A DNA stretch of 64,000 bases, from assembly GCA_973895155.1 (NCBI GenBank), contig OZ316896.1, forward strand, positions 6,624,166-6,688,165, given 5' to 3'. How positions within the stretch are numbered: the stretch's first letter is position 1; the number at the start of each line of letters is the position of its first letter. The translations under genes and the position numbers were made by a program. Under the pieces are notes generated by a model, which was not told where the DNA came from, did no database searches, and saw only the letters and a program-made list of their open reading frames with translations. Positions 1,705 to 58,298 of this stretch are shown in pieces. The stretch is from Marsupella aquatica (Eukaryota > Plantae > Marchantiophyta).

Positions 1705-4185
1705 TCTATCTGGTAGAGAATGTTTAGCCCATTTGGTTGAGTAGAACAAAAATGATTTTTTTTAGAGATCCATGTTGATTTTGGCTTGAACTTAGTTGAC
1801 CCACATTACTGGCCCATATTTAATAATTACTCTTTCCCAGTTTTTGAGTGACAACTAGCATAGATTTGACATGCGTTATACTTCTCACACACATTACTAT
1901 TCTTGCATGGGCTTCCATTCTTGCACACATGGCAATTTTTACACAAGAGACTTTATTGTGCATCAACCCACGTTGCATAACTCTCATCATTGATCAACAA
2001 ACATCAATAGTTAAGACTAGCTTGTTATCTTATTTTATTACCCAAAGTACTATCCAAGTTTTTGTTTAAATTTGGCATCAAAGAATGTGTATCATTCTTG
2101 CAAATGAACACAACATTTTCTTCACAGTTGCCACACGAGTGTCTTGAATGGTCACACCAGTGATATGACACGTTGCACAATCTCCACCTTTGATAAGTAA
2201 AATCCAACGGATAAGAATGAATGGATGACATGGAATTTCTCTGAATTTATAAATTTGCAAGAGTCTCTAACTGGACCCATAAAGACTGCACACTCACAGC
2301 CTAGTCATCCAGACATTCACCATGCCAGTTTGTTCAAGCTCGAAGGTCCTCCACCATTCCAAACAAATCAGCCGAGCCTCACCCTTCCTCGAGTTTTCTG
2401 TTCTCCATAGTAGTTTGTTCGTCTCTAGCATGCCCAAGCTCTTTGACTTCCACCGTTCCCCTCAATTCACCTGAGAACCTCCTGATGCCACCATCGGCCT
2501 CCGCTCTCTGATCTCCCTTGCCTCACACAAAAATACTCAAACACACAACACAATGCCCACGCAATGAAAAACAACTTCCCCCAACACACGACTCCACGCG
2601 CGCATGATCAATTCAATAATGCCCCTTGTGGACCGTGATTGTTCAAAGCTCTCCATGTGTCGCTCCCACAAAATTTCACCCTAAACCCCATTCAAATTTG
2701 GTTAACTCCTACTTTCATTTATTCTTCTTTTCTCTTTAGCTCAAAACTCAATCTTCACTTAAACCCTTTTCCCCTCTACCAGAGTTAAGCCAATTCTCCA
2801 AAAGTTGTTTCAAGGCAAGTTGCCCCAAATCAGCAGAGCTCACTCCACTCATAAGCTTATTTTCCCGATGACACCATTGTTCCTCCACCCCCCTCTGGTT
2901 GTTCCTTTGCCCCCTTTTCTCCCCGCTTCTCTCCGGTTGAAGTCTTTGGACCCCCTTGATTGCCCCCTGACCTTCCCTCCTGTCCAGTTGGTGTCCTTCC
3001 TGGAGGCCCTCTTTGTTGTGCCCTGGTGGATCCTCCTGTTTTGCCCCCTTCTGTCAATTCCTCATGAGCCCTTTTGCCATGCCTTTCCACTACCCTGTGA
3101 GCTACCCTCAAATACTGACCCTCCAGAGGCTGCCCCTTTCTTTGGCTTCATCCACCCTATCCCAACCCCTCCTGTTGTTTCCCCTTTTAGGATCGCCATG
3201 TCTCTTCTTCCCCCTTGTCTTAGAAACATCTTTTGGTCCCCCTCCCTCTAGATGGACACCCCTTGCACTTCCCCCTCCTTATCCCTCCATCATCCCCCAG
3301 TCTTTTGACTCAACCACCCTCTCCCTTCTATTTCTGTAGATGAAGTGCCTCAATTGGTTGCGATTGGGCCAATGTGGTGCTCAAGCCTGGGCCCTTTGGA
3401 CTCATTGTCTGTCAAGGGTCCAGGCAGCTCCATCCAAGCCCTGTCGATTCTCATGCATTAAGCATTTGCTCTCACTGCATGAACTAAACTTCATTGCACT
3501 TAGGCCCAAGAGGAGTTTTTGCTCAAACCCTCAAAACAAACAATCCTTCAGGGGGTCACAATCCTTCAGGGGGTCTGGGGGGGGTCCACCCTGAGCCCGG
3601 CCTTTGTTGTGACCCAACTAGCTCATAACACCAGTTCAAGTCCCTTATGCACAACCCTAGCTCGAGATTGCCTTTGCTAGAGTAAGGCTTCCTTGCTCTC
3701 AAGTCTTTCCCATACTTAATGCCTTCGAGATGGCCATCCTAGTGCTTGGACCATAGACAAACTCGACGTTGGAGTAAGCAATGCTGGAGCTAAGTGGTGG
3801 AGTAATCAAGTTTTGAAACGTTTGGTCTCTTGCTTCATTGTGGATCTCCACCCCATTTTCTTTGACTACATCATGGACGTTGAGGCTAGATTTTTCTCCT
3901 TTCAGGTTCAGCTTTGTTATGCCCCAATCTCTACTGCCTGAGGCTGTTCAGGCCATTGTTCCAAATTTTGTGGAGGTGATTTTAGACAGTCCAAATTGTG
4001 TTAGTAGATGATTTCTCACCGCATGCATAGACAAATCCTTTCTAGCTTGCTCATTGATGCAGCTTTGGACTTGGTTTGGGTTTGTCTACATTCCAGTGCG
4101 GAAGTTGGTTCTGGAGCTTGGCTTTTGGCCAGTCCTTGGTGGGCACCCTTTTGTTTGTGCTCCTTCATCTTTACCACGTCTTTGA

Positions 4186-4275
4186 GATCAGATCAGATCA
4201 GATCAGATCAGATCAGATCAGATCAGATCAGATCAGATCAAATCAAATCAAATCAAATCAAATCAAATCAAATCA
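4186..4275. repeat. Compound pentanucleotide microsatellite (GATCA)11(AATCA)7, probably an expanded LINE 3' tail
   Basis: Read directly. It abuts a LINE 3' end whose paralogue at 29601 has only (ATCAA)3. Confidence 0.9.
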
Positions 4276-4915
4276 AATAAAAAATTCAATCAAATTCTAA
4301 GCTTCAAAACAACCCAAAGAGTGAAGGGAGCTGTCAGTGGCAAGATGTGAGCTCATGTGAGGACCTTTGCTTCCTCATCGTGTGACCAAACTAAAGGGCC
4401 TAGAGAGTCTCTAAAACTTCAATAGCCTTATCTCTCTTGCTACCAATCGCCATGATATATAGTGCCCAAGCTGCCTTGGAGGTAGTGTAAACAAAGCATA
4501 TAAATTTTGAGCTAATATATGTGTACTACTCTCACCTCATGGTACACTCTATAAGCTATGAACACATGGTATTAATTCTCAATACTAAGACTATCACATA
4601 GTTTACAAGTCCTCTGCTGTCTCTCAATACCACTCCACCTCTTCTACTGCCAAATGATGAGAACTCAGTCTATCTCTAGCTATGATTTTTTCTTAATTGC
4701 AAAGAGATAGGAGCACTAAGTACCCTTGCTCTTCATACAACTGCATTGGAGTCACATCCCTCAAGTAGTGTTGTAGCCTAGGACTAGGATCTGCCCACAA
4801 CTTCTTGATGGCTTGAGCTTGCAATGCCTTTCTTAGTGCCTTTGGAGGCCCTTACCGTTTATCATTTAGTAATCCCCATGCTTCTGCCCACCTAATCACA
4901 TCAGCATATCAACAG
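4276..4915 (-). mobile_element. Degenerate 3' fragment of a non-L1 LINE (RTE/L2-like)
   Basis: The minus strand gives RLSSHHLAVE..., then a degenerate CxxC...E..H motif typical of the RT C-terminal domain of these LINEs. The 3' UTR (gtgaggacct...cttcctcat...accaaac.aaagg.cctagagagtctctaaaa) is shared with 29601-29765. Confidence 0.6.
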
Positions 4916-5459
4916 GAACCTGTACCATGAATGTTTTGAAGTTTTGAGCCCACATTTTAGCGAAAGGTAACACTTGATCGGGTTCCTTACAACAACTAAA
5001 TGCAGTCACTTCTCCACCAAATATACATAAACCATCGAGTGGGTCCAACCATACACTGGCTGCTGATACGAAACACACTCGAAATGTTACTTATCTTAAA
5101 AATATCATCGGAATTGGAACTGTATTCTATAATATCGCTAGGCGCTAACAAAAAACAAACCAAGATTTCTAGCCCATTGCAATAAACTTATTGCAAAAAT
5201 ACCTACAAGTGTAAGAGTTTAGATGAGAAGAATTCCATTCCCAGAATGTTAAGAAACGGAAATTTTGGTTTCAAACACAAGTACTTTAAAGAATCCATCC
5301 GGCCCATGAAATGAAAGAGATTCACTCAGAACGGGACAAACTTATGCTAGCGTCGGGCGCTAGCCATATATATTAACCAAATGTGATCGTTGAAAAGAAA
5401 TGAAACATTGCAATGCGACAAATGAGGTTGGAGCCGTTCAACGTTACTAAATCTCTAGT

Positions 5460-8400
5460 CTATAAGTTTAGAGAATTCTGCCTAGCTAGAATGAGCCTCA
5501 CCTCACCTACAGTCAAAATTGGCTGACTAGCCAAAGTTGAATCCACGACATCTAGTTTGAGGACGTTGGTATAAACCCAATATAGATGCTTGCAAGGCAT
5601 GAAAGGCCGTCCATGAGAATGGCGACGATAGAAGTCCTCACAAGAACAGCAGGGGAAAATACAAATCTGCACCCAGTAAGTGTTTGTCGTACGAAGTTTC
5701 TCTTGGGTCTGGATCTGAAATTGTTTGCCCCAAGAGTTTCCGATTGAAACATCAAACTGTTGAATAAGTGTCATCAGCTCGTTGTTTGCAGATTCAATTC
5801 TTTTGTTGTGTCCTTGTGAAAGATTTGAACGTGGGACTGTATTTTTACCATTCCTACTCTGAAGGCAGATATTTGGCTCCAGGAGATTGATTTTCTCAGG
5901 GAAAACATTCACATTGATTCGCAAGTCAAATGGAGATGGAGGAGCCTGACGTCCGGCCTCTGGATTGATCGCAATCCCTTGCTGAGATAGGAATTGGACC
6001 TCAGCTTCCGAAAGATTTGTGCCCTTCAAAACGGGCAGGGTATGAGGAAACGGGGGAAGATTCACCACATTACGACGGGGCCGACTCTTATGGCATGCAT
6101 TATTGGGACAGAACCAAATCATCTCAGGATGTGGTTCTCCCCTGAACATGCGGTGTCCTTTGACAACAATGCCAACTACACCATCCGTTGACGGGTAACC
6201 AACCTTTTTCAGACAATTTCGACACTCATCTCGCTCCGATTTACCACCAAGAGATCCATTACATTGAGGCCCTGCACCATGTTTCGTCACTCTTTGCAGG
6301 TGCCAAGCACCTGGTCGCACATCTGTCTCCAACACAGATGAGTCATGGACAACCCTTTGGAGGTTCGGAGGTGCACTTTGCGGTGCTACAGAAGACCTTG
6401 TCACCCTCCTCCACGGTGGAGTACTCCACTGACAGCCTTCTTCGATTTCGCTTTCCGATAGATCCACAACGCCAATGTTATCGTGAACAGGTCCCTCTAC
6501 ATTCAGGGAGAATTCGATCTTGTTTAAGTTTTTCCTCTTCATGCCTCGAGTATTGGGTGATGTTACAAGAATAGTGTCATGCCGATGGGAGTCTTGTGCC
6601 GAGATGTTCCCAGAGGCCTGACCTTTCCTCTTCACAGACTTTGTTGTAACATCCCCATTGAGTGGACCACTCCTTTCCAGGTCGAATTCAGCCGCACCGG
6701 AAAGAAGCATATTGGAAGCATCTTGGAAAAGTTTTGAAGAACCTGCCTGGTCCGCCGAACGGAATGCCAATTCCCAAATTGTAGGTCCGGTTCCTCGGTG
6801 AAGACCTCTCTTATACGCCGTATATGCTGCAACTTGTGAGACACCCCTGTTTTGGTCCATCTCACATGCTTCGAATAGGCCAGCCTTTTTCTTAGTTTGC
6901 CAAGCCTTCATTATGGAATGCGCCGCCTCTGAAGTAGTACAGTTAGGAATCATAGCGCTTTCCTCCACGCTTTTGTTCTGCATCCACCATAGGAGCAGAG
7001 TTTAGGAAATATGACTTAGCCACATGTACATAAAATCAATGACAGCGCCTGGCGCTAGCAACATTCAAACTATATTTTTGCAAAATTTAAGAAACAAGTG
7101 GTCCATTAATACTAGCACCGGGCGCTAGTATCAAAAACAAGATAATGATGAACGAAACCTACGAGACCACACTAACTGAAAATAATGGTAGCGCCAAGCG
7201 CTAGTATGAGTTTGAGTGGTTACTGGATGTTGAAACTCACCAAACAAATGAAATTTCCCCATTGACGCCATCGGACCACCCACCACGCCAACCAACCTTG
7301 GAGCATTCGAAGCTTCCCTGGAACACAATTCCTAGATCTCCACCATACATCGATATCCCTTGAAATTCTGTACGCTCCAAGAAATGTGGACGCGTTCCTT
7401 AAAGAGTCCCACATCTTCCGATGCTCATCTCGTTTTTCTTCCAATACACCTTCAATCGAGTGATGATGAAACGATTGATAGAAGTGAAACGCATCCGATC
7501 GCTCCTTTTCTGGGTTAGGATGTCCTCCGAAAAATACATTCTGAACAGCATTCCACCCAGCTTGGGCATTGTCAGCCATGAATCCATGGATTACAACATT
7601 ATCCAACCCATTTTCATGGCAAACCTCAATCATCAATTTCCAGGCTTTCTCTAGAGACTCTGAATCTTCTGCTTTCAACTCACATGTGAAAATTGTGCAA
7701 AGAGCACGATAATTGTGATCATAAACATGTGCACTAAAATTTATCCAATCTTTTGTCATCCTCCTCATCACATCAAAACTGACCCATGCCCCTTCCAATG
7801 GACCTCCAGGCTGCATTTGGCGCAACAAATCAACTCCAGATCCGTGCCCTTTTACAGTCATTTTGAAAATATGTGGCCTATCCTCTTTACAGCCTTGACC
7901 TGGGAGCATGTAACATTGTAGAAAGGGAAAGATTATGCATTTCTGCATTTCAACAAGAAACTCCAACTCACCTTTGCCTTTTTGGTCTTGCCGAACGCTT
8001 CGAAAAAGAGATGCAAACTTTTGAGGGGTCGAAACTACCATTAACGACTCCCAAATTTCTCTTTCCTCCAATTCACCAATGTCATTGTTGGACACACAAA
8101 GAGCCTTCCTTAAAGATCCAGTTATAGCGTTCTTCAGACCCGATGGTGTGGCACACGGCGTAGCTTCATGTTGTTTCTTTATGAAGTTGTGAGCAATCTT
8201 TTCAGCACCACGAGAAAAAACTTTTCGACTGGGATGAGCATGAGTTCCGACATGCACAGCAAGACAGGACATATGCTTACAAGTATCCGCATCTAGAAGT
8301 AGTTGAGGGTACATATAAAAAAGCATTGCAGGACATGCTTCAGTACAAAAGGGTAATCGTTGGCAATAGTGACAAACTACGCCACCCTCGTCAATCATCT

Positions 8401-9259
8401 TTCCTACGGTATGTGGCCCCGCGAGTTTGGGTGTCCCATCCCAAGCTTTACAATTTCTTCGTTTCTTCCGCAAAAGATAATCACACTTCTGATTCTGACA
8501 TTCTAGTGCTCCTGTACACGTCACTTTACCAAATTCCCAGAACTTTTTCGGTTGTACATTCGCAGAGGTTGGAAATATTCGTGTCCAGAAGTAGCAGTCT
8601 TTCGGCCGATCCATGTCACGGAGTCTTGAACCTTTTGAAAGAAGACCTTCTGCGGGAGGCAATTCAAATACAACGTTTCCATTGTATTTGCTTGGGAGGC
8701 AATTCACCTGCTCATGCCTGAAATCACATGTTTGGATGAATCGCGATAGTTCACTATGGCCAGTTGATTTGAGAATAGCATCCATCACGCTTTGATGATA
8801 GACAATACCTCCCGCAACACCCCCCACAATGTGTGTCTCCGCAACACCCCCTGCAACGTGTGTCTCGGAAGGAAACTGACCTTCCATCTTGACCGAAGTT
8901 CCCGGATTGGGCAATTTTTGCGAATGAATGGCAACATCCTCCTCATCACTATCGGAAAGGTGAATGACGGGAACCGGATGAATTTCATTCGTAACGGAAT
9001 TATCTCAAAGATTGATATAGTATCTCTTCCCAACGTTCAGTTGCCAAAATCTGACTCCATCGTCGATATCAAACAATGCGTCACCAGCCTCATCTCCAGA
9101 AGCATCAACAGGTTTGATGGAAAGAATGTCATTGATGCCAATGTCAAATCTTCCACAAAGATAGTTCTCACTAACCTGTTTGTACGTATCGGAAGAACCT
9201 AAAGGAATGCGTACAATCTCTCCAGTTCCAGAACGCAGAAGCACAACTGAATTAGACAT
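5460..9259 (-). pseudogene. MULE-type DDE transposase with N-terminal Cys/His (GCM/WRKY-like) region and C-terminal SWIM zinc finger; join(9259..7241,6977..5460), one premature stop
   Basis: Catalytic motifs VSFDVM, FMADNAQA, DAFH (C/DxxH) and TTSEAAH. SWIM motif CSCEDF..CKH. A phase-0 GT-AG intron (7240-6978) joins the two long ORFs. ORF 9005..9286 is in frame with 7220..8914 across a single TGA at 9007-9005. Confidence 0.85.
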
Positions 9260-10159
9260 TGCGGAACAATAATCCCGAATTGACAAACAGAGAAAATGAG
9301 AGAATAGGAGAACATAACCCGACTTAAGTTAAGTGAATTTGTAACAAACTCCAGAAGATTATCGTTTGTGAATGACAAAACTGGTACTAGTCGTAAAATG
9401 TAGAAACATAAATATCGTTTGTCGTTTTGCCAACATCACTACGTACTGGTAACATCAATAATATAGTTTGAGAAACACGGTCAGATATTTACTAGCGCCC
9501 GACGCTACCATAAATATGTCACGGAATTAAAACCCAAAACCAAACTTCATATGCTAGCGCCAGGTGCTATCATTAATCCACATCCAATTAATGGTGCAAA
9601 ACTCTATTAATTTTATTGGAATAACATCAATGTCAAAATACATTGAGTTTGTTTTATATAATTGTTGTTTGTAGGAAATATACACGTATAAAATATAGTT
9701 AGCGCCGGGCGCTGACATAATTTCATGGCTAACATCAGTGTTAATGATGTTATTCTGGTGGTTTTTGAATGCTAGCGCCTGGCGCTAGTATCGAAAGGAA
9801 TGACTTGTATTATCCCAACGGTTATATCTAACGGTAAAGTGCATGAACGTACTCATTGTTTCACGCTTTTTGCAGTTGACTTCCTTAACAATAGCCTACG
9901 GATCATCACTCCTGCCTTACCCCACTTAAAAAGAGGCGTTACATGATATACTCATTCTAAACAGTATCGGCCACTTGTCCTTGTCATGATTGGTGAGTGA
10001 CATCCTTTCCTTCCGCATCGATCTACCTCCCATGATGTCAACCGCCCAAGTTTTAAAGGTTTCCTGGTTGTTCTTTTTGTACGGTAATCTGTTCAGAGCG
10101 TGAGAATAGACACTGGCTCTGTGTTGTACAAGCACCTTTGCAAACTTTGGGGCTCCACG

Positions 10160-13100
10160 ATGCAACCTTCAAGCGCTCCAAGCTCTCCAAGAGGGTATAC
10201 CACGGTTCCGGAGGGAGATCAGGGTCATTGCGAGAGTACACAATCTTCATTCTCTGGGGCATTCTATTCGCGTCATGTTACAAGATCAAGCGGAGCGATT
10301 CCTTCGTCGAACACAACACTCCCGAGCCAGAAGCCAAGAAGGGGCAGAATGGAGACTGATGGCATGACCGATTACGCTTTGGGAGAGGGCAACGAGGTAG
10401 GACTTGGAATGAATGAAGTCATCTCCAAACACATTATGTCGTTTGGGAAAGATTTCCGGGGTAATGAGAAGGAACCTCCACGGATTCCGCTTTGTCGCCT
10501 GGTCCACATGGAGGTTGTTCGGACGTTACAGAAGGAGAGTGCATCAATTGAGAAATTGAAAGACTCATTCCGAAGTAGTGGATACAATCCCAGGATAGGA
10601 ATGCGGTTTTTTGTACAACCGACCGATTCGGATGGTGTGGAGAAAATCTGCACTGAAGAGATCAGGGGGAGTTGGGATCCAATTTGGGTTGCTGAGAACG
10701 AGAAGTTTGAGCTGGAGTGCGAGGCAGATCCTGCCTTTATGATCTTGAAAGACAAAATGTTCTCAGTGTTCGACGGGAATCATCGACTTTACTCGTGGAC
10801 GATGGTCACTAAGGAAAATCTTGACAACGTCAAGTATCATCCCAGAGTTCTCTGCACAATTTTCAAGGGTGACAAAGCTTCACAAATTCAGATTGAGGCG
10901 GCTATGCACACTGTGAACCAGTACGTTTTTTTGCCCTAGCTTGTAATTAACGATTTCCGCAATACTTGTTGATTACATAAATATAGTGTTTATGGAGTGT
11001 TTATAAAATAATACAGTGTTTATAGGATAATTGAGTGTTTAAGTTAAGCTAGCGCCCGACGCTAATAATTGAAAACCTGACCTATTGCAGGTTAGGGCAG
11101 GCCGTTGTTGAACCGTCGTGGATCCTTGACGCAGACAGAATCCGAAGGATTCTTTCTCACGATCTAGAGCACTACAAGTCTATCATTGACAGCGCCAATT
11201 ATGCAAAGTTTGAGTATATCAAACAGAAGACTCGAAAACATTCTTGGTACACAAGAAAAATGCCTCTAGAAGCTCTAGTCTGTATTTTATGCGAAAACAA
11301 AATCAAAGCTTACACTAACCAGTTCAAGATGGACATGGCACTGGCAGCAAGTCAAGGCAATCCTTGGTCGGCTGATGACATCACAAAGCGGCAATCGCTC
11401 ATGTTGAAAGAATCTACTAAAGATTGGTCCACAAAAACGTCCAAAATCACTCCTCTTCTTAGTCCTGAGTTTGAAGATTTTCTAGGTACCTGTGCAGAGA
11501 TGTATGTTTTGACAGAGAAAAACAAGCGAGAGAAAAAACCAGATTCGGTTGTTTGCACTATGGACCGTGCCAGACTCTTCACTGCAGTTTCGGCGCTTGA
11601 TCCAAAATTGAGGTGTACATTGCTCGTTGCTCACTGTACTCCAGAGTTGAGAAAACAATTCTTCCACCCTTCGAGTGTGAACGATGATCCAGTGAAGCAA
11701 TGGTGCCACACATGGCAAACATGGAATACCGTCGAGGGAATTGCAATTGGGATGCTACACTCGGCAATTTCCGCAACGATTGAAATGCTACCGGTTGATA
11801 GGCTTGCCCAGTCAGGGTGTGACTCGGTAGAAAATCTGATTGAAGTAATTTCAAGTGAATTCCGAAGGTATGGGGATCTTGTGAAGGCAAAGTTCTTCAA
11901 CACCTTGTGGCCATCAAAATACCCTGATAAAGAGGTATATACCGAGAAAAATCAGAAGAGGGCCAAGAGGTATTTGTATCGTTTCTACATTTGGATGGAA
12001 ATTCATTCCCCGGATGCTCTTTGGTCGTATCCAGCCGCATTTCACAAGTGGATTATTGTAAAGGAGGGAGATCTTGTTTGTGACTTATACTCGATGTATC
12101 CTGCCGAGGGTAAACTACCCCCAAGGGAAATGTCCGATTGGGAAAGAATTCACTGCCCATGGTACCTTGACACAGACAAGTGGGATTCACCCTTTGATGA
12201 AGTGGAGAAGGATTGGTTTCTGAAACTTGCAAAGTCGTAGATCCTTCCCAACATTGTTTCTGAGATGAGGCAAGGTCTCCTTAGCGACATCGATAAATCT
12301 TCTACGGAGTTACAGACAATCTGTGAGACAGTAGTTGTCCATGTAGATAGGAGCCGCAAGCCACGAGGGAAAGTTAAAATAGACACTACAGTGCCAAGTG
12401 CCTCCACGCGATCCGGAAAGAAACGTAAGTTTTCAATCTTTTATCAAATGTTTGCTAGCGCCTGGCGCTGCCATTCTTGTGATTCAATCTTCATCAGTGT
12501 TTGCTTGAAGGCCCTAATCCCACATTCTTTGCAATATGTCCATAGGTCAAAAGAAGTCAGATGTAGATGGCACAGATGATACGAAGGTTACTCCAGAAGC
12601 TTCAGAAGCAAATACTGGCGCTTTGCCAGATCCACTTACACCAGTTAATTCTGGGAAATCGATTGTCCCAGTCGATGCGACGAGTACAAAAAAGAAAAGC
12701 AGAAGGACTCGAGATGCTGGACAATCAGAACGGGATTCTCAAGCTGCCACTGGGCTCCAACGTGATGTTGGGGATTTTAAAGCCAAGTTGTCTCGTCATT
12801 GTTTCGTTGAGACCAGTGTCAGTGAACTTGTGGACAGTGTGTTTAATAAGGAGGAGAAGCCAGAATGGGTAAATGATGCCGAAAAGTGGGGGAAAGACCT
12901 GATCAAATCTGGATGCCGGCTGAAAGGAGTGGTGAGGGGTGGGAAGCAAAGACCTTTTGGTGTTGACGCTGGTTTTATTTACTTGCCAACTGGACTAAAA
13001 CCGACTTTGCTTGACAGAAAGGTCCCTAAATGGAACGTCCCCGACTGTACCCTAGCCCGATCCTTTTTCCGGGCAATGGATCCTTTTTTGTCGGATGATA

Positions 13101-14025
13101 GAATTATTGCGATACTCCATACGGGGGAGTATGATCAAATTTCGCAGGTCATCTCCGCTTGTCAAGAGTCCAAGAAATTCCAGTGTCATGGAGATTCCCC
13201 ATGACGACATTGGGAACTAATTACGTGTCCAGGAGATATTGTTCTGGATTGGGCTGTAGGTTCGGGGAGTACATTTGTTGCAGGTGATAATTGTGGTCGT
13301 TTTGTAATTGGACTCGAGAATAGGAAGGAGTTTGTGGAAACCGCTTCTAAGGTATTTCTGGATCTTCTTACTCCAAAAGAGTCTGAGCCCAAAGCCCCTC
13401 CAAAGTCTTCAATTTCAAAACAAAAGAGAGACAAACTGAAGTCTGTTTTAAATTTTGATTCTGAAGATGAGGATGAGACAAAAGAGGGGGAAGAAGAGGA
13501 GGATCCTAACATTCCCAAAGTGTCCCTTACCGGAGAAGATCCAGGATCTAATGGAGGGAGTGACAGCGGAGACTCTTCTGAGTAAGAAGCTTCCGAGTAA
13601 GCTCTTAAGCAAACCCTTTTTGGGGGTTTTTTAGTAGATTACCTTATTCTCTCTTAGATTTCTCGTTGTTTTTTTCGTTTTTTAAAATATTCTTGGTGTT
13701 GACATAAACCCCTAAACTTCTCGTCCTCAGGTCAGACTGGAATCTTCGCCGGCATTTCAAACTCAGAAGGAAAGTAGCTAGGCGATATATTAAAACTCCC
13801 GAGAAACCATTTGTACTACCTTCCTATGCTGAGAATATTGCTAGACGAGCTGATAGTGTGCGGATCCTCCATTGGGAGCATAAAGGTTTGAGATTAAGGA
13901 GAGGGTCTGATAGAAAATTTATTCGTAGTCGATATGTTGATGATATGGCCGAGAACGAATTTTTAGACATGGAGGCAGAATCCACCGACAGGTCCGAGTC
14001 AAGTGAATCAGAATTCTCAGATTGA
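10160..14025 (+). pseudogene. ParB/Srx-like domain + beta-class N4C/N6A DNA methyltransferase-like fusion; join(10160..10920,11091..12424,12546..13581,13731..14025), two in-frame stops
   Basis: ParB-like: IPLCRLVHMEVVR...IEKLKDSFRSSGYNP...FSVFDGNHRLYSW. MTase motif X-I-II-like: ELITCPGDIVLDWAVGSGSTFVAGDNCGRFVIGLE (~13214-13320, missed by the ORF track). A degenerate motif IV-like VDAGFIYLPTG lies upstream. All three GT-AG introns preserve frame. Stops are TAG at 12238 and TGA at 13202. The start codon is uncertain. Confidence 0.75.
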
Positions 14026-14699
14026 TTTCCCTCGGACGGGTATTTTGGGATTTATATACACTGAAGTTATACTAGCGCCGGGCGCTACTGTTATGTAACC
14101 TGTAAAAATCGTTTATTCAAATGTATTCGATACATTGGATACTTTTTTGGTGTATCTTTATTCTATTATGTTCTCTATATTCGAATGTTTTTATGGTAGC
14201 GCCTGGTGCTACCATAATTTAATGTCCATGATCATATACCCGCATATTTTTCAATTTGGTTTTGTCCATTTTCAGGGTAGGTTTACTTCCTAAGACTGGA
14301 CATTCCGATTGGTCGAAAACAATTGACCTGCAACTCCGTTTATTTTGTGTCTATTTCTCAATTGAATTATGCTAGCGCCTGGCGCTAGCAAAACATATTT
14401 CGGAAACATTGTCCGTTAAGTGTTTTCCACATGTCAGCGACAACTATTTTGTTTGTTCCTTCTGTTATTAACGTAAACATTTTAATACTCTAATATTAGC
14501 GTCGGGCGCTACTATAACTGTATGACGGTCAAGGCTATCTTACAATGATTCTCCCGTACGCTCTGGATGACGTCATTGGAAGTTTCAAGGTAATATTTTG
14601 TCCCGTTCTAAGTTCGTTCGGCCTGTCGCGACTCGCATGTGAGCTGATACCGGATTTTTCTCATACAAACGGTCACTTCACGTCACAACGGGACTTTGC

Positions 14700-15521
14700 A
14701 TGCAAGAAACATTTCGGGATTCCAATAATGGTTTTGGTCGACCATTTTTGAATGGAGACGATGGTAAACATCGCAACTATCATGTGAGATGGGAGTGACC
14801 GTTCCATGTTGAACGGGTAGTTTGGGGACTTTGAGGGTGCAACGTCCAACCCCTCCCTCATTTCGGTGGGCGTATCCAGGTCGAATGGATTTGCTTATAA
14901 TACTTGGGAGATTAAATCCCGACTGCCTTGTTTCGCTACTGCTTTATTGGTTTCTGTTTCCACTTTCGATAATCTTCGAGCTCTTTCGCTGACCGGGGTC
15001 GTATTGACAACTATATCTTTGAATCTGCCTAGAGGTGTCTTACCATGAATTACCCGAGGAGAATCTCCGTGGCCTCTTTTCAGAGACACACAACAATCAT
15101 TTCAGAGGAGGGCTCGGTTCCAGAAACTGAGCAGCCTGAATGGTCGGAGACAACTGCTTTCTACAACCATTTTAGTCTCCCCCAAGACGAAGCCATTAGT
15201 CCTGGTGACAATCTGATCCCATGGCTGAGGGATTCTCCGCCTAGGAGATTTGCAGAGCGGTTTACGATTCACTGACCACCTCCTCCTTACAGTCCAACTC
15301 GGGAGGATGAGATGAGGAAACAGGAAGAACTTGGCCGTGTTGATTTCCAGAACACGACCATTCCTGGCGTGTTTCCCCAAACCGGTGATGAGCGAGTTCC
15401 GTCGATGGCGTTCGTGAGGAACCGTGAGCACGGTTTCGTTCCAGATAGAGCCCGATCTAATGCTGGAGTGAACGATAAATGTGGCTCATCGACCAATGAG
15501 CGAACTAGCGCCGGGCGCTAG
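14700..15521 (+). pseudogene. Possible decayed third ORF of the MULE element, unknown function
   Basis: ATG 14700 and ORFs 15045..15275 and 15312..15521 share one frame, interrupted by several stops. No recognisable motif. Confidence 0.25.
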
Positions 15522-15990
15522 TGTTGGTCGATAAGACTATGGTGCCCATTGCGCTCAAGTTTTTCCAAATGTGATGAAGACTTCGTCGGGACTCGACCGG
15601 AATTTAGAAATCTTGTCGTTAGAGTAGCCATTTTGGTTATCGATTGTGTGGAGTTCGGTGAAGTGCCTACCACTAGTTTACTGTTTGGCCATTTTAAGCG
15701 AGAGGCATCGGAGCCGCGTTTCTTTTTGAAACTTTCATACCTTTCGTTTACGGTGTGGTTATGCGGATCACTTTTATCTTTTGTAAGCGCCTGGCGCTAC
15801 CATCTTACTTAAAAAAATTGTATCGCAAGACTTTGTGGCTTTGGGGTGGCGTTCAATTATGCGAATTGGTTGGAGTCTGTTCTTTTGGATGTATAACCCT
15901 AAATGTTGGTCCGATGGTCCCTGTGGTTTCGTCATATTTATCACGTCGGCCTCCGTCTGACTGAGCGGTATAACTAGCGCCCGACGCTAG

Positions 15991-16341
15991 TATCTGCACA
16001 AGTCCATAGCCAAAGTCAACCCGTGCCGATACGAGACCGAGCAAGCTTACAAGAGAGCCATTCGCTTAGCCGGCCGTAATCACTATAACGACAACTTTGA
16101 CCTCCCATTTCAGAGTGAGCTTTGCCAAGTCGACAAAATCAGCGAGTACTTCTTTGTCGACGAGAAGTACGTTGGGTTCCAGGAAGCGCTTCTTTGGCTT
16201 CCAGACAAGGTTTACCATCTCCCGGGCACGATAGACTTGCAGGCGCATCACTACAACCATATCCCCGCCCAGGTTCAAGCCTCCATAGAGTCAGTTTGGC
16301 CCTGCCCGAACAAGCAAAACTCCTATCTTAACATCACTTGA
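15991..16341 (+). pseudogene. 5'-truncated open frame (YLHKSIAKVNPCRYETEQAYK...SYLNIT*), probably an LTR-retrotransposon accessory ORF
   Basis: About 116 stop-free codons with no start codon. It begins directly after the last palindrome and ends just before ORF 16367. Confidence 0.4.
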
Positions 16342-16366
16342 CTTCCCCAGGGACTTCCTGAATCTA

Positions 16367-18522
16367 ATGGCGCCTCCCCCAGCTGCCACTGGCGCCCACC
16401 CATCCGTGTCCGCGCCAACACCGCCCCAGCCTCAGCCAAGCCGATCTCCACCACCGATTGCACCACCTCTCCGAGTGCGATCCGTGGTAAATGCGGTGAA
16501 TATTAGCTTTGAAGACAAGGAGGCTCACCCTCCTCTGAACGGACGGCCGCGGGGTATGACTCAGCAGGCGCCAAGCAACCCGGTGCCACTCCAGCCAGCC
16601 CGAGGGGATAACACGGTGACTCTAGCGGCCCCGGCACCAATACTCACGGCAGTACCACTACCGCCGCCCGACCGGGAGGATGGGGAGATGTCCCCCTCTT
16701 CTAGTCACCCCGGGAATCAGTCTCGAGGTAGAAAGAGAAAGGAACCCGTAGCTATATCTGGGTTGCCTTTAGCCATGGTTGCAGTGGCCAAGCTGACCAT
16801 GCATCGCATGGGGGATAACGTTCACAAGAACATCCTCCACCCCAAGCATGCATGCTACCTAAAGACCCAAGGGTTTGAGCACCTCGCCTCTCTCCCTTGG
16901 AATGGAAGCAGGTACTACGGGCAGGATATGACGGAGTTCATTCAGAACTTTGACGAGGCCCGTCAACAAACCAGCGCACACGGGAGAGTGATGTGTCTCA
17001 ATGAGGCACGTTTGAAGATGATTTTTGGCCTACTCGAGGGGATAAACCGGGTAGAGTCTCGGGCTCCTAGGGGCAAGGGAGCTAAATACCAGTCCTCTAG
17101 CTTCCCGACCGAGGGAGCAGTGGACAACGGATTCTTGATGAGGACGTGCGTCATCCCGGGGGTAGCAGAACGCCTGGAGTTCCAGCGGTATGCCCTTCAC
17201 ATGATGGAACCACGAGGTGAAATATCCGCCGCCCAGGTCATACAAGTAGAGAACTTTTGGCCTAGGAGGTGGGCGTCCTTCTTCATCAAGAAGTTCCACG
17301 AGGAGATGGAGCGAAGAAGGAAGACCTTATACCTTGGCGGAAAGGCGTACTTTGCGAGCCACATCAAGATCATCATCGAGTGGTACGTCCGTTTTGACCG
17401 CCGAAGCCTTCCCTGTAGCAACGAGACGGAATTGACTCCGTCAAAGTGGGTGTTCCTGGCTTAGGAGAGGCGACCGCAGCCCAAGGCCCAAAACCTGGTT
17501 GTCGCAAGACCTGCTTCCCCGACCCCGCCACCAACGGCTACCGCCCGGCCAAGCGTACCCATGGACGCAGTTATCGCGACCTTGGAAGCAATCAACCAGG
17601 TCAACGCAATCAAAGCCGGGCCGACTGAGGCCAGACCCGAACCCGATACTACGGTGGCCAAGGAAATCCTGCCACCCCCACGGCTGTGCAGGAGAACCGA
17701 CCAGTGGAACCAGCCCCTTTGACAGACTTACCTCAAGGGCTGGATGTTTCCACTCCTACTCCCGCGCGGGCTGGGGTCTGCCTGTGCCCAAATCTAGATG
17801 GGCATAGTCTGGACCACCCAGAACTCTTTGCGCCGGGCACATTTTTGAATGGGTTGTTGGGAGATTTCTCTCAAAAAATCGCACGGGATACCGGGGAATA
17901 CATGGCACAAAAGGTGGCCTACTTCTTCAACCAGGAGTTGGTTGCAGCTATAAAGGCAGGACGTGCGCAAGCTGAGATGGCGCAGAGAATAGAGCGGTAC
18001 CGGGTTGAGTTTGTCTACCTGAAGGACGAAGTGGCAGCCCTAGAGATTGAACTCCAGCAACTGCAACCTCAGGTAACGGCCACGGAGGATCAGGTTGTCA
18101 AGGTCAGGGCCCGGGCAGCCTTAGCAGAGCAGGCCAGGCTCGGAAAGGACTTCGAGATCGCATGGCTCCGAACCAAGATTGACGGTTTGAAGGGACAAGC
18201 CGTCATTTGGCAGAAAGATCTAGAGGAAGTTGACTCTTGGTCTCAGCGGAACGCAGCCGAGATAGACACCCTGAAGACGGAGGTGGCGTGGCTTCAAGGA
18301 GAAGCCACGAAGCAGGCCCAATTGGTGGACAAGCTGATGAGCGACGTCCAGCAATTGGAGGAGACATGCCAGGAGGCCGCAAAGGAGACGGACACAATGA
18401 AGCGTGAGAACAAATCTCTGCTGGACCAGGTCCAGCTACTCAAGCAGGATGCCGACAGGCTCAAGAGGCAACAGGATAGTCGCTCCTACTCAGGCGGCTC
18501 TGGCAATCGTGCCAGGCATTAG
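16367..18522 (+). pseudogene. Accessory ORF of a Ty3/gypsy-type element: Pro-rich N-terminus, plant-mobile/Athila-ORF-like domain, coiled-coil C-terminus
   Basis: MTEFIQNFDEARQQTSAHGRVMCLNEARLKMIFGL resembles the EFYxN...G..i....i...lgl pattern of such ORFs. The frame continues past TAG 17462, then shifts near 17686 into a heptad-rich ORF. It lies upstream of a PPT and LTR. Confidence 0.6.
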
Positions 18523-21056: not shown

Positions 21057-21882
21057 CTGTCTTCCCCCGAACACAGCGCCCAGGCCGCTGTGTTTGAATA
21101 TGGTCAAAACAGGGACTTTAGGCAAAAAAGACATTTTCACTCAAACACAGCGCCATATTAACACATCGCCCGGGCGCTGTGTTCAAAATTGATTTTGTGT
21201 TTGAAAATGTGCACAAGTGACTATAGGAGAAAGGTAATTGGGTTGCAACTACAATACGTTACTTAAAATCGTCCGACACATCCGCACTTTCAACTTACAA
21301 AATCCATAGTCCTTTGAGAAATGTAAGCTAATTTCAAACTCCTTCATTCTCAAAGAAGTGTGTTGTTTCCCAATTGTTAAGCAGCAAACCGGAAGTATTG
21401 ATATATACTTCTGCTGTGTGAACTTTCAACGGACTTTCACATCAACCTCTGATTGACGCCACGTTGTCTTGTAAAAAAAACCCATAGTGCCTATGTGCAT
21501 AATTAGGTCTGATGACTCACTTTCTCTATTTCCAATTTTCCATTGCCCTCAAGATCAAGGCACTCTAATAGAAACAAAGCAGTCTCGCGAACATTGCAAG
21601 CTGCATGAAGAAAGATTGAATAATAGAAACAAGCAAATTGGCCACATTAAACCAAACAACTGTGAAAAGTGGACGAATATGTTATACTAAGTGATTACCT
21701 TTCAAGCAGATTACCTTAAATTTGAACACAACGCCACATTTTGAACACAACACCACAAGTCCAAAAAATGAAAACATTGACTTCAAACTCAAACACAACG
21801 CCTTGGGCACTATATTCAAATAGAGCACCCCTTGGCTCACTATTGGAATATAGTGCCCGGGCCTTGTGTTGGGGGAAGAGGG
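21057..21882. mobile_element. Tc1/mariner(pogo)-type MITE with TA target duplication
   Basis: Imperfect TIRs CTGTCTTCCCCCGAACACAGCGCCCAGG / CCCGGGCCTTGTGTTGGGGGAAGAGGG, flanked by TA at 21055-56 and 21883-84. Subterminal AACACA(G/A)CGCC repeats. Confidence 0.75.
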
Positions 21883-31100: not shown

Positions 31101-33541
31101 AGTGGTGGACCAAGCCCCCCAACGCCCTCTTTAAACCCAATACTCTTTCCCAGGTACCTTTGGTGCCCAAACGCCTTCACGGAACTCCACAAGCAAGCAA
31201 CACGATGCCTCTATCACCTCCAGCGATAAACTCCCTTACAAAGCGGTTGCACTTGCTTTGTAACGCAACCATTTCTCAATGGTCCCTACTATCTACACAA
31301 GCAACCAACCCCATTGGTAAGTAATCATCATGATCTTGGATTCCAACACCATTTCTTGCCTCAAGCTCAATAGTCATTAGTAAATAGGTCAGCGGATAAA
31401 ATCTTTCAGAGCAGCATTGTCGTGATAATTTAATTATTCAAGATGGAATCACTTTTACTTTAAGTTATTACTAAGTATATAGGTTAGGTTTATATTTCAT
31501 TACGGGATAACTAAATAGTTTGACTATTACTCGCTTTATGTGCATGCAAGAGAAGCAACGATGCAAATCATAAGATGCATGCATAAATTGTTTTAGATGC
31601 AGGCGTAAATTATTTTATTTGCATGTAATAGTTATTTTATGTTCATGCAAGGTGAGAAAATATTGAAGCCACAAGGTGCATGCACAATTTATTTTAGACT
31701 CATTTAAATCATTTTATTTGTATGCATTAGTTGTTTTATGCGCATGCAAAATGAGCAAATACACAAGCCACAAGGTTCATGCATGCACAAATTATTTTAG
31801 ATGCATGCATTATTTGTTTTGATTCCAATAGTACTAGCACACATTCTTACATTGGATGTGTATCACTTGGTTTTTATCTAAGCGTTTAGGCGTAATTTAT
31901 GTCCTCTTGGATTCAATATAAATAAAGTGGTTAGGAACACTCTCTTCTCAATTCTCACATTTTGATAATTCTTTGGTCAAAGTAATCTTCTTTTCATATC
32001 TCATCTTTTTCTTCAATTTTTTGCCTTATGTACATAGTAGTGGGGCGTCATTTGGCCCGGATAACAAAGAAAAGAATGATGAATTTATAGATGGGACCTT
32101 AGGGAACAAGGTCTCTTTGGAAACTTAGAGGTGGGGCATCATTTGGCCCAGATAGCAAAAAAACAAAAGAACCATCATGAATTCAGGAGAGAGAGAGATA
32201 TATCTTTAATCTTCCCCTTCATAACCCATTTTTTATTAGAGTCCATTTTTTGGACAAGCCATCCATGAGGTAATATTTAACCTATCACTATGAAGCTTAA
32301 TTTGTAGCTGTTTTATGGGTTCTAACAAGCCAATTATAGTATACCCAGTAATATCTTATTGAGAGGAGTGGGAGTGCATTATCTTTGTTTTCTATTAAAA
32401 TCATGGATCTGAATAGCAATCCAAATGATATTCCTGTTTTATTTTTTTTTGAAGATAAGGATTATATGTCGTAGAAAATTTAATTTTTGAGAGGTGTTGG
32501 TCAGCAAGCATGATAAAATAGAGTTTAATAGTATATGAATTTCAACAGAACGTTTCTTAATACCCACTACCCTTGTTACTAGAGTTATCATTTTGGTTTT
32601 AGTATAGAACTTATGGGCATGTAAGGTTGACTTCATAAGAGCAAACATGCTCTTACCACAAAACACGATCACCCGGACATAAATAACAATCATACTGAGA
32701 AATCGATGGATTTTGAAGTTAGCTTGTGCATGTCTAACTTTTGGTTGATAAAGAGAGATATGATTTTGGAACTATGAGTCCTTAATTTGTCAGTATATCA
32801 TTAGTCAAGAAGAAAGATTTGCAATCATGAGGACTTTGCTGAGCTGAACTGAAAAAGCGCACAGGCGGCGCCGGGCTGTGTATACACTTAACGTGTGGGC
32901 TGTGTATACACTTAACGAGTGATAGGAAGGGATCCGGATTGGAATGCGGAGATTCGAGCTGTGCTGCCCAGAAGGATGGCATAAGCGTTTAGATAGGCGG
33001 TGACAAGTGATAGTTGATTTGACCCAGGTATCTTGGCTGGGGGTTATCGCGGCTATAGCAAGATTTAGGTTGTGCCAGTAAGGTCACAACGCAACAGTGG
33101 ACTCTGCCGCTTCAAGGCGGTGGATGAGGGGACACTTTCTTGCTGAGGTTGGTCCCCGTGGAGCGCATTTGGTGGGGTATAAGGGTGACATTGGCACAGG
33201 GCCGCTGCACCAGGAGGATGCTATACCACGTCTTTTTCGGGAGTCAAAACGGGAGGAATGTTCTGGTGGATTCTGACTCTAGAAGATAGGTGGGCATTTG
33301 CGCTGTACTGTGGGATTCTTCACTAGGATCTCAGAGGAGCACTATTGCGGTGTCACTCTGAAATCGTGGTGGAGCAGCTCATCGTGACTCTAGAGATCAT
33401 ATGTATGTAAGTGATTGGGAGATGCGGGGATTCTGATTGGGAGCCGCTCTGAAGTGGGAGAAGGTACGTCCGATTTGTTTTCTTACCTTTGGCTTGGTTG
33501 CATTGTTGTTACCTTGCGACTGTGGAAGCAGGGAAGATACT

Positions 33542-35614
33542 ATGGCAACAATGGATTACTACGGAAAGGTGGAACCCTTGGTGCGGGATAGAGGGGTGAG
33601 AGGCGGACGCATTCCTACGACCGGTAGGGAGAGGGGTGAGTTCGGGAGGCAGCTTGAGAGGGGGCCCGCGGAGCTTCAATATGGTGGCACTGGCGAGGCA
33701 GAGGACCCTGGAAGAAAGGAGCATTTAGGGGACAAAAACGGGGGGTTGCGGGAGCGATTCTCGGCTCAAGATGCCAGGCGAGATTCGGAGGTGAGCCGGG
33801 GTTTACTGCCGGTCAGAGGTGGCAGTAGCTTGGCTATCGGGATTAGAAGCATTGTAGACTCACAAGCGCGTCTGGACTGGGGGGATCTGATGGAGCTGGA
33901 AAGTGAGATGCCTGGAGGTGATCCTATAGTAGGGGGGCATATATGGCTGGACTCAGAAAATGCGCTGAGAAATGTGGGCCGACGAGAGTCTGCACTGGGG
34001 GAGCTGAGGATTCCTGTTGAGGAGGAGGCTTCTGAGGAATGTGTGCGAATTCTACAAAATATTGGGATTCGATCTAAAGGGAATCTTGATAAGAAGCTTT
34101 TCACAACTCTCGATTGGACTATGGCGGAAGCTGCTCTCAACGTGAGACAACTGTATAATTGTGCACTTATGTGCTTCTTCACGGACAGGCCACCTCTGCT
34201 ACAGGTGTTTCGAGAGTGGGTGGAGGAGGTGATGACTAGCCAAGGTAATTGGCCGGTCCTCTAGATTAAATTTGTGGGGAAGGGGTTTTATATGATTGTC
34301 TTTGAGCATCCGGATCATCGGGACATGGCGCTAAACTCTGCCCCATGGTTTATGGATCGGAGATTTGTATACACGTTCCCATGGGACCCCTCTTTTGACA
34401 TTAAAAATGAGACATTCACTAAACTGCCGGTATGGATAGAGCTTCCTTTTCGGGATCTTGCATTGGAGGGATGCAGGAGGCAGATTGCTTGCTCACTGGG
34501 CCCTCTGCTTTACTACATCCAGGGAGATCAGTTTAGCTCCTTCCCCCATGATAGAGCGTGCATTCTCTGGGACACGGATCGGGAGGTCCCTACTAGTGTT
34601 AGAATTCGAATTAGGGATGATATCGTGATATGGCAACCAGTGACATTTTGCAACATTCCATATCACTATTATAAATGTAATAAGAAGGGTCACCTGGCAC
34701 GTAATTGCGGAGAATCAGGGGCATATGAGCCGCCTGTGATGGTTGAAGCAGAGATTCCAGATGAGAAGGATGATGAACGCCATTCAGAAGCAGATGCGGA
34801 AGAGGCTCAACGGGCTTTGGATAACGCCAAGGCCAGGGCGGAATTCAGGGAGGCCAGGGCATTGCAGGTGGAAAACCAGCAAAGGAAGGCTGTGGAGGTA
34901 GATATGGAGCAGATCGAGAGGATGGTCTTTGAGAGTAGCAGGCACAAAAACCGGGTTGAGGGTTCGGGCTTAATGACAGGTGAGCCTGTTCATCTGAATG
35001 CGGGGATGCCCTTGGCAGTGGTGGCTAGAAATGAGTTGGCTCCGGTGGAGGTGGTTCTCCCATTGGCGTGCAGGAGCGAGTATGGAAGGAAGGAGACTGT
35101 GCTGGATGCCAAGGCTTTGATTTTTGAGCCGCCCCCTTTTCCTGCGGAGCAAGGGAACTCTAGACTGCTACAGGCCTCTGACTTTAATCGGGGGGACTCT
35201 GGCAAAGAAGCTTTCTCGTATCATGGTGATTCGGACGCAGAGATGTCTGAATATGAGACTTACATTTCAAACAGTAAACTCAAGTCCAGAGCACGGAAGC
35301 AGGAGCTGAGAACTCCTCCCACTGTTACCAAAGACAAACTGAAAGGTGATTCCAAGAAACAACGTTCCCTAAGCTTCTCACGAGGATGCTTGTCTGATGC
35401 AGGTGTTGGTGACAGGTCCTCACGGGGACACAAAGGGCTGGCACGTACCGAGCGATCCGATGGAGAGGAGATAGGTAAGGTTGTGGGAGAGGGGTCCTCT
35501 GGTGTAAACAGGGGTGGTAATCGGCTTAAGTTGATACCTTTTGCTGCGGTCTCAGGCAACCTGAGAATTAGCTCGGATGTGGAGATGTCTCCCGGGGGAC
35601 GAGCTCGAATTTAA
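33542..35614 (+). pseudogene. L1 ORF1 (DUF4283-like + zinc knuckle), one premature stop
   Basis: VGKGFYMIVF, APWFMD, LPVWIELP and degenerate knuckle YYKCNKKGHLARNC. TAG at 34262 lies between in-frame ORFs. Confidence 0.85.
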
Positions 35615-35670
35615 CTCAACTCGGAGGCAGAGATGGAGGCCGCTGCTTCGGTGATTCAAATTTAGGCTAG

Positions 35671-46720: not shown

Positions 46721-46789
46721 GGGGGCCCACACTGTGTAGTGTTCCGCTGGACTACTAAGTGGCATGGATTGATGCTTGCAACTTAATTA

Positions 46790-57800: not shown

Positions 57801-58298
57801 ACCGGCGTCGGTAATATTCCGACAATTCTCTAGCTTGAGAACCTCCAGATTCTTCAACAGTGCGGCGGCCACTATCCCATTATCCGTGATATAGGAACAG
57901 TAACTTAGATCCAACTCTCGCAACGAAGGGCACTTGCTCAAAAGCCTCACTAGACCGACGTCAGAGAACTGGCTGATCTTCGCTAGACTAATACTCGTCA
58001 GACGATGACCTGCAACGTTCCCGACTAAGTCAAGGGCATCGTCGCTGACCTCCAAGCAAGATGACAAGTCTATACTCTCCACTTCCGTATATCGACGCAA
58101 GATCTCTTCTAGAGCGTCCACACGCAGAAGCTTCACAGATTTTCTTGACCTAGCTTCCATCTGTAGAAAACGTCTGCATACTAGGCACCACGCCTGTCGG
58201 TCCGCTATGTCGTGAATTTTATCCAGAATATTGAGCAAAAGGTTCTCATCCAGCAGCCCGAACCCCCGATCGTCTATAGCTAGTCTCCGCTTGCTCAT
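54880..58298 (-). CDS. F-box/LRR-repeat protein, FBL3 (At5g01720/RAE1)-like, ~647 aa; exons 58298-57663, 57432-57307, 56940-56836, 56634-56238, 55935-55806, 55609-55315, 55134-54880
   Basis: N-terminal F-box (LDENLLLNILDKI...WCLVCRRF) and many Cys-containing LRRs (LxxLxLxxCxxITDxG). All six introns are GT-AG and phase-consistent, giving 1944 nt with no internal stop seen. Confidence 0.92.
56032..56249. repeat. 109-bp tandem duplication spanning the exon 4 splice donor of the F-box gene
   Basis: 56032-56140 and 56141-56249 are near-identical. Confidence 0.9.

Follow-up and report, generated by a model that had tools for sequence, protein, structure and literature searches.

What would a gene with a bacterial-type ParB domain do on a transposon of a land plant? 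This question is raised by a stretch of 64,000 nucleotides from the liverwort Marsupella aquatica (contig OZ316896.1, positions 6,624,166 to 6,688,165 of the forward strand; hereafter the window), in which an original prediction, made from the letters alone, had described an intact-looking ParB/sulfiredoxin (Srx) signature in a plant transposable element gene. The gene lies on a repeated element, next to and divergent from a transposase-like gene that we take to be Mutator-like, and its product combines a ParB/Srx-like domain with a methyltransferase-like domain. As a tentative answer, whose chance we put slightly below even, we propose that it is a broken accessory gene of this element, the intact product of which would dimerise, bind the element's own 15-bp palindromes and protect the element from host silencing.

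The residues on which the original prediction was based fall into one open reading frame (ORF) on the + strand, 10088-10939, with the isoleucine of IPLCRL at 10484, DGNHR at 10772-10786 and a GTACGT donor directly after 10920. The gene around them can be modelled in three exons, supported in part by two relatives from the liverwort Riccia, P0153 (Riccia sorocarpa KAL3677308.1) and P0173:

10151..10920, + strand: exon 1, a low-complexity N-terminus and then the ParB/Srx-like domain (about 10409-10920); from the ORF, the donor at 10921, the family, and model and fold searches, with an inferred start codon.
10484..10920, + strand: ParB/Srx core with IPL..VR38, L50-F54-G58-Y59, an insertion of ~43 amino acids (about 10622-10750), DGNHR (10772-10786) and N170 (10916-10918); from the family alignment.
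10921..11090, + strand: intron 1, GTACGT...TTGCAG, phase 2, with one palindrome at 11050; from the splice sites and a GT donor at the equal position in related loci.
11091..12424, + strand: exon 2, which completes the predicted dimer segment and continues into an all-helical middle region, with a premature TAG at 12238-12240; from the splice sites, alignment to a relative and the model.
12425..12545, + strand: intron 2, GTAAGT...CATAG, with one palindrome at 12456; from the splice sites.
12546..13585, + strand: exon 3, a disordered linker, a beta-class N4-cytosine/N6-adenine (N4C/N6A) methyltransferase-like domain and an acidic tail; from a PF01555 match, collinearity with P0153 and the predicted fold of P0173.

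Joined together (10151-13585), the exons encode 1047 codons, and the joined model aligns with P0153 over nearly its full length (27% over 922 columns, E 2e-66), with a second aligned piece at E 6e-10. Many homologues terminate precisely at the end of exon 1, and a GT donor stands at this position in four of four related metagenome loci (L001-L004, 1.2-1.8 kb each); the gene structure is therefore a feature of the family. In the window, the reading frame is broken by stops at 12238-12240 and 13202-13204 and by the loss of ~75 codons of the last domain near 13180. Because of the two stops and the deletion, this copy is dead: the motif is intact, as had been predicted, but the gene that carries it is not. 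Contigs from four runs (two studies) all have a C at 12238 in other copies, and the stop at this position is therefore particular to the copy in the window. Many annotated relatives are likewise truncated.

A sequence search with the ParB exon over 1.84 billion representatives, clustered at 50% identity, yielded 239 family clusters at E≤0.001, 83 of them at 1e-10 and nine at 1e-30. Twenty members were looked up, of which nine are from Riccia sorocarpa and 10 from Adiantum; all 29 matches of a search with P0153 are Riccia proteins, and no algal protein occurs among the named matches of the family. The matches point to a non-seed land plant as the source of the window. In one member, P0121 (Adiantum capillus-veneris KAI5065344.1), the annotation places a NIF phosphatase domain at the C-terminus (E 2.4e-12), which may be a fusion or a merged gene model. 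For the family alignment (A1, 94 rows) the query was combined with 93 of 150 listed matches, chosen for coverage and short length; two of the 150, P0042 and P0131, are unrelated repeat proteins and were excluded from every alignment. Among the rows with a letter at the position in question, R38 is kept in 77/87, G58 in 73/91, Y59 in 88/91, D122 in 76/93, G123 in 87/93, N124 in 92/93, H125 in 87/93, R126 in 79/92 and N170 in 65/78. The best-kept positions are the ParB pocket positions. Found in exon 1, shared by 239 clusters and conserved at its pocket, the predicted ParB/Srx motif is thus real.

Structure comparisons point to the same fold. An AlphaFold model of the domain has a predicted local distance difference test (pLDDT) score of 96 and a predicted template modelling (pTM) score of 0.90. 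Of 48,161 chains searched with it, 13 reach Z≥2, and 12 of these 13 are of the ParB/Srx type, six by their title and six by our own assignment. KorB is the best match (Z 7.2, root-mean-square deviation (rmsd) 3.0, 95 aligned residues); the other title-named ones are PadC (Z 6.7), Arabidopsis Srx (Z 6.5), pNOB8 ParB, human Srx and Spo0J. Also among the matches at Z≥2 are SerK, Atu1540, SbnI, SspE, BrxU and the Dnd complex, which we take to share the fold. Each of the 21 matches at the head of the Foldseek list belongs to ParB, Noc, KorB, PadC or Srx, with a similar result for the viral library; Atlas features of the domain lie at 0.95-0.96, and one matched cluster carries the automatic name ParB/Sulfiredoxin.

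At the sequence level, Pfam gave no useful family for the ParB exon and a search with the A1 profile returned nothing relevant. Weak library matches were obtained to DGQHR (4/94 members, best E 0.001) and to the ParB-like phrog_1033 (4/94, best E 0.0027), and the single PDB sequence match, to galectin-8 (E 0.018), was rejected as chance. When the family profile, with positions 72-114 removed by hand, was compared with a profile of nine plasmid ParBs, 62 columns were aligned with a score of 23.5, whereas 30 column shuffles did not go above 14.7. This comparison pairs VR with QPR, G58 with the Box I glycine of G..P, and DGNHR with GERR. The Box I helix and its glycine-containing loop are therefore present (L50, F54, G58 and Y59, aligned to ieeLa..I...Gv..P), as is the Box II GxxR (G123 and R126, aligned to GERR). 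The insertion ahead of this box had been estimated at roughly 50 amino acids and measures ~43 (positions 72-114, with hand-set borders). Since all of these modest scores agree, with no single strong one among them, we consider a ParB/Srx fold of the domain very probable, in line with the original fold call.

Because the arginine of the Box II-type GxxR is kept, binding of a nucleotide by this domain is plausible. In a survey of purified ParB-fold proteins, 11 of 28 bound a nucleoside triphosphate (NTP), and no rule for predicting specificity emerged (PMC12704722). Which nucleotide the family would bind is hence not predictable here. When P0173 (residues 90-450) was modelled as a pair of chains together with adenosine triphosphate (ATP) and Mg, the complex passed our homodimer test, with 0.52 against 0.05 for the best control, contacts that agree to at least 62% and a partner pLDDT of at least 57. 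In the calibration of the test, the mark was reached by 21/30 solved homodimers and 0/23 single chains, and by one of seven eukaryotic proteins without a solved relative. In the predicted interface, residues 256-269 of one copy meet residues 126-152 and residue 212 of its partner, and these belong to the pocket: R126, H212 and 256-269 of P0173 match R38, H125 and N170 of the window. A homodimer across the nucleotide pocket is thus predicted by the model.

The region downstream of the ParB domain had been described as ~450 amino acids without a recognised family. This holds for the middle part, for which exon 2 has no Pfam match and Atlas no informative match (recognition below threshold), but the region is longer than supposed and ends in a methyltransferase-like domain. 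In a predicted full-length model of P0173 (73-row alignment, mean pLDDT 70, pTM 0.39), the ParB domain is followed by ~400 residues that are all helical and have no clear fold match; a disordered linker then leads to the C-terminal domain. From the isolated domain to the full-length model, the alignment to KorB grows from 95 to 136 residues, with Z rising from 7.2 to 7.5 and the rmsd from 3.0 to 4.3.

For the C-terminal domain, a beta-class N4C/N6A methyltransferase fold is predicted. Exon 3 of the window matches PF01555 above the cut-off (E=1.1e-7), CcrM is matched by profile at E=0.0018, and phage methylases are matched weakly, in the motif I region (E 0.004-0.06). In P0173, the predicted domain resembles M.MboIIA (Z 16.1, rmsd 3.0, 188 aligned residues) and M1.HpyAVI (Foldseek E 1e-6), and 11 beta-class entries fall at Z 13-16, N4CMT among them at 13.7. 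The motifs are in permuted order, with motif IV (YLPTG at 12980) before motif I (DWAVGSG at 13247). Motif I, which binds S-adenosylmethionine, is kept (DWAVGSG in the window, DFAGGWG in Riccia). Motif IV reads D-x-P-[TS] rather than DPPY: among 23 sequences, a narrow sample with 18 from Riccia, the standard [DNS]PP[YFW] occurs in none, the first position is D or N in 22, the third is P in all 23, and the aromatic position is T or S in 21 and F in one fern protein (DVPF).

The candidate binding sites of this protein are short palindromes that are scattered over the element:

5133..15989, no strand: 18 dispersed 15-bp palindromes TAGCGCCNRRCGCTA, with 36 strand matches against 0.39 expected.
TAGCGCCNRRCGCTA, sites 1-9: 5133, 5348, 7043, 7113, 7189, 9493, 9555, 9700 and 9773.
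TAGCGCCNRRCGCTA, sites 10-18: 11050, 12456, 14073, 14197, 14373, 14497, 15506, 15785 and 15975.

Elsewhere in the 64-kb window, TAGCGCCNRRCGCTA does not occur. None of the 18 palindromes falls in an exon of either gene; with exons covering 61% of the element, uniform placement would give this with a chance of 4e-8. The two introns of the ParB gene hold one palindrome each, and the transposase intron holds three. A spaced palindrome of another type, ATCTCGGC-n7-GCCGAGAT, is present in three copies at 1289-1511, where no coding remnant of the family was found. Locus L002 has two occurrences of a motif like ATCTCGGC-n7-GCCGAGAT in the intron that follows its ParB exon, a hint at subfamily-specific palindromes.

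The carrier of both gene and palindromes comprises the following features:

4913..16000, no strand: repeated element, with the left end near 4913; 16000 marks the last palindrome and is a lower bound for the right end; from contig breakpoints.
7241..9259, - strand: large exon of the transposase, with a GCM-like Cys/His cluster, the first two catalytic-type aspartates (SFD, MAD), D/CxxH and an in-frame stop at 9005-9007; from the ORF and homologues, with an uncertain start.
5460..7001, - strand: last exon of the transposase, with a putative catalytic glutamate (TSEA) and a C-terminal SWIM-type CxCxDxxxxxxxxxxxCKH; the acceptor is non-canonical in this copy; from the ORF.

The transposase-like gene (about 9259 to 5460) is read from the strand opposite the ParB-methyltransferase-like gene. 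In an alignment (A4) of 31 rows, 30 of them homologues and one of these from Calypogeia fissa, the Cys/His cluster, SFD/MFD, FMAD and C/DxxH are kept. The motif names GCM-like, DDE and SWIM are putative assignments, and on this basis we presume that the protein is Mutator-like. Neither transposase exon nor the homologues gave a match in Pfam, MULE and SWIM families included, and the family may be an undescribed Mutator-like clade.

In the contigs of the four runs, both genes are far deeper than the left flank, a depth that is not to be read as copy number. In runs X3 and X4 the contigs diverge from the window at 4912, as expected for an empty site; those of X1 and X2 continue through this position. 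No right end, terminal inverted repeat or target-site duplication (8-11 bp in Mutator-like transposons) was found for the element. At its left end (4912-4990), there is a hairpin, ACAGG-AA-CCTGT, together with an inverted AGGAACC/GGTTCCT pair ~60 bases apart. Past the accessory gene, an open frame of 105 codons with an acceptor at 13730 (13708-14025, + strand) could be a third gene or exon and belongs to no recognised family; no ParA gene is present among the scanned ORFs of the element. Taken together, the repeated element, the divergent transposase and the dispersed palindromes bear out the transposon setting that had been predicted for the gene. The element has an observed-to-expected CpG ratio of 0.82, compared with 0.75 for a host-gene region and 0.23-0.59 for the left flank and other repeats. 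We do not count this ratio in favor of protection, because the age of the element explains it equally well.

VANDAL elements are Mutator-like, and we favor a self-targeting factor because the layout of our element resembles that of VANC and VANDAL and because a twofold site suits a dimer. By analogy, we infer that the intact product binds the palindromes and counters host silencing. It would dimerise through its ParB/Srx-like domain, the dimer would be gated by a nucleotide, ATP or cytidine triphosphate (CTP), and the helical middle region would read the palindrome. The methyltransferase-like domain, which lacks the aromatic residue of DPPY, would be a weak or dead enzyme, and this module may hold DNA or block host cytosine methylation instead of acting as an ordinary methylase.

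Several observations weigh against this proposal or the fold on which it builds. None of the 94 A1 members matches a ParB family in Pfam, a match to ParB_N or TIGR00180 above the curated cut-off is lacking, Foldseek found no match at E≤0.001, viral library included, the best Z of 7.2 lies below the tool's caution line of 8, and the comparison with plasmid ParBs, with the insertion removed by hand-set borders, has a probability of 18%. The acidic residue of Box III is absent, the position before N170 being I, L, V or M in A1. The dimer was predicted for the Riccia relative, without its alignment and with ligands outside the calibration, and its good score could stem from resemblance to ParB dimers of known structure. 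No DNA-binding fold was recognised in the middle region, and the transposase's own Cys/His domain could be the palindrome reader. Finally, wherever a site departs from the palindrome consensus at a CG/CC position, the change is C>T or G>A, which suggests that the sites were methylated at some time.

If the transposase reads the palindromes, the ParB-methyltransferase-like protein would be a non-reading helper of transposition or target choice. Such a role would agree with the Cys/His domain of the transposase, which we presume to be GCM-like, with the location of five of the 18 palindromes beside or inside the transposase gene, and with the failure to find a terminal inverted repeat, in place of which internal sites could serve the transposase. 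However, rather than clustering at the mapped end, the sites are scattered across 11 kb and occur in each of the two accessory-gene introns as well. Moreover, in the Plavaka elements of red algae, where the transposase is unrelated, inverted repeats adjoin ParB genes too (bioRxiv 2025.02.11.637652), and we regard this explanation as unlikely. That the gene is a captured passenger without a role in the life of the element seems extremely improbable to us: the truncation of this copy and of many annotated relatives would fit, but 239 clusters, an intron position kept in 4/4 loci and conserved pocket residues argue for long selection, and a similar architecture is found on an algal element (PMC12477816).

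Two further explanations concern the domains themselves. The methyltransferase could be an active N4-cytosine or N6-adenine enzyme with a non-standard motif IV that sets a bacterial-type mark on its own element, with the ParB domain as a switch. The predicted retention of the whole beta-class fold, the kept motif I, and motif IV with D/N first in 22/23 and P third in 23/23 sequences are all compatible with activity; 4mC writers exist in Marchantia (bioRxiv 2021.02.12.428880), and a phage ParB activates a DNA-modifying enzyme, its NTP residues being dispensable (PMC13229309). Since the standard motif IV is found in 0/23 sequences, with T/S at the aromatic position in 21, F in one fern protein and 18/23 from a single species, an active enzyme is again not what we expect, though not a negligible prospect. 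Alternatively, the ParB domain could be a constitutive dimerisation or scaffold module that uses no nucleotide. The missing Box III acid and the 43-amino-acid insertion adjoining the pocket would accord with such a module, 17 of the 28 surveyed ParB-fold proteins bound no NTP in vitro (PMC12704722), and a nucleotide-free role has been suggested for the phage dioxygenase activator (PMC13229309). R38, G123, N124, H125, R126 and N170 are, however, among the best-kept positions in liverwort, fern and further members, which makes a scaffold without nucleotide highly improbable in our view. The self-targeting accessory factor therefore remains the reading that we carry forward.

How does this gene compare with known systems? 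The pairing of ParB and methyltransferase on transposons is not new, having already been reported in algae. In the brown alga Ectocarpus, the DNA transposon Sola1-1_Ec32 carries as cargo an accessory protein of 1104 amino acids with a ParB-like domain and an N4C/N6A methyltransferase (PMC12477816). Going by its description, both domain types lie in one protein on the strand opposite the transposase, as in the window, a self-marking role has been proposed for both, and the lengths are similar (1047 amino acids for the deleted copy of the window, 1100-1240 for its relatives). Our element differs in its land plant host, its presumably Mutator-like rather than Sola carrier, the altered motif IV and the 18 dispersed palindromes. 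The red algal Plavaka elements (a Bostrychia preprint) contain ParB-oxygenase and methylase-SET accessory genes, PAG2 and PAG3, with inverted repeats (bioRxiv 2025.02.11.637652). They share with the window a ParB domain beside inverted repeats on a eukaryotic DNA transposon and a methylase in the cassette, whereas their ParB is fused to a 2-oxoglutarate oxygenase, their methylase is separate with a SET domain, and their repeats are in tandem instead of dispersed.

The closest functional analogue is VANC of Arabidopsis, which recognises short motifs located in VANDAL introns and intergenic DNA and relieves the element of silencing (PMC5735166). Both cases involve an accessory gene of a plant DNA transposon and short intronic or intergenic motifs. 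In the part of that source available to us, VANC is described neither as a ParB nor as a methyltransferase-like protein; its motifs of 8-9 bp are non-palindromic and in tandem, and its activity is shown while that of our protein is proposed. With the bacterial ParB/KorB CTPases, the family shares the fold, the GxxR arginine, a predicted dimer across the pocket and 15-bp palindromes of parS-like size (PMC12704722); unlike them, it has the 43-amino-acid insertion, no Box III acid, apparently no helix-turn-helix (HTH) or C-terminal dimerisation domain, no ParA, and a spliced eukaryotic gene.

Phage ParB-methylase loci have been described, as have ParB-HTH fusions in chlorophytes (PMC4738411). Phage fusions of ParB with an N6_N4 methyltransferase have the same domain pair and order as our family (PMC4738411, PMC12704722), which has in addition a helical region of 400 amino acids between the domains. 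By analogy, such fusions are a plausible ultimate source, and a horizontal origin fits the predicted folds. No relative was found among 75 viral contig candidates, 250 GTDB genomes and annotated phages by short peptide pattern or tblastn, searches of low sensitivity that distant relatives could escape. When two phage proteins were compared by single-sequence profiles, the probability stayed below 2%. A word-based search of longer proteins yielded no homolog of any origin, though relatives exist, and its blanks are therefore weak. With no close relative found in prokaryotes or viruses, a donor cannot be named. A bacterial-type beta-class methyltransferase fold in a eukaryote is also known from Marchantia DN4MT1 and bdelloid N4CMT; DN4MT1 is a host gene with a TSPPY motif, and the available part of the preprint does not mention ParB (bioRxiv 2021.02.12.428880). 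Our literature search, the scope of which did not extend to Iyer et al. 2011 or to supplements, either of which could list plant members, returned no land-plant report of ParB plus methyltransferase cargo. New here are the occurrence in land plants, the presumably Mutator-like carrier, the altered catalytic motif, the large ParB insertion and the dispersed parS-sized palindromes.

The remainder of the window consists largely of separate features. A microsatellite, (AGATC)n passing into (AAATC)n, lies at 4185-4279. Past the element, two long GC-rich ORFs (391 and 297 amino acids, the second with a coiled coil) occupy a much deeper repeat at 16289-18522 (+ strand) and belong to no recognised family, and an imperfect palindrome family, AACACAGCGC...GCGCTGTGTT, at 21069-21188 and 21784-21817 probably marks the ends of a small non-autonomous element. 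The + strand regions 33437-39588 and 44862-50735 are presumably two decayed elements of the long interspersed nuclear element type, with pieces of ORF1, endonuclease and reverse transcriptase. On the - strand, we take 57657-58550 to be an exon of an F-box/leucine-rich repeat-like host gene and 60641-62719 to be a Copia-type remnant of integrase and reverse transcriptase.

What would this locus mean for the family? Few transposons have been shown to bind or change their own chromatin, and the red algal preprint, in its available part, names VANDAL only (bioRxiv 2025.02.11.637652). In the liverwort element, candidates for the protein and for a 15-bp site occur together with the carrier transposase, with many family copies in a sequenced liverwort and in ferns, and the self-marking proposal for algal ParB cargo becomes directly testable in land plants. 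A fuller ParB/parS-type switch in these liverwort and fern Mutator-like elements, with loading at the palindromes, a nucleotide-gated dimer, sliding, and spread of the methyltransferase-like module, we judge distinctly unlikely. If the switch does work as in bacteria, it would show by what means a motif so short can mark all 11 kb of an element, and a ParB sliding clamp would serve epigenetic self-protection in a eukaryotic nucleus.

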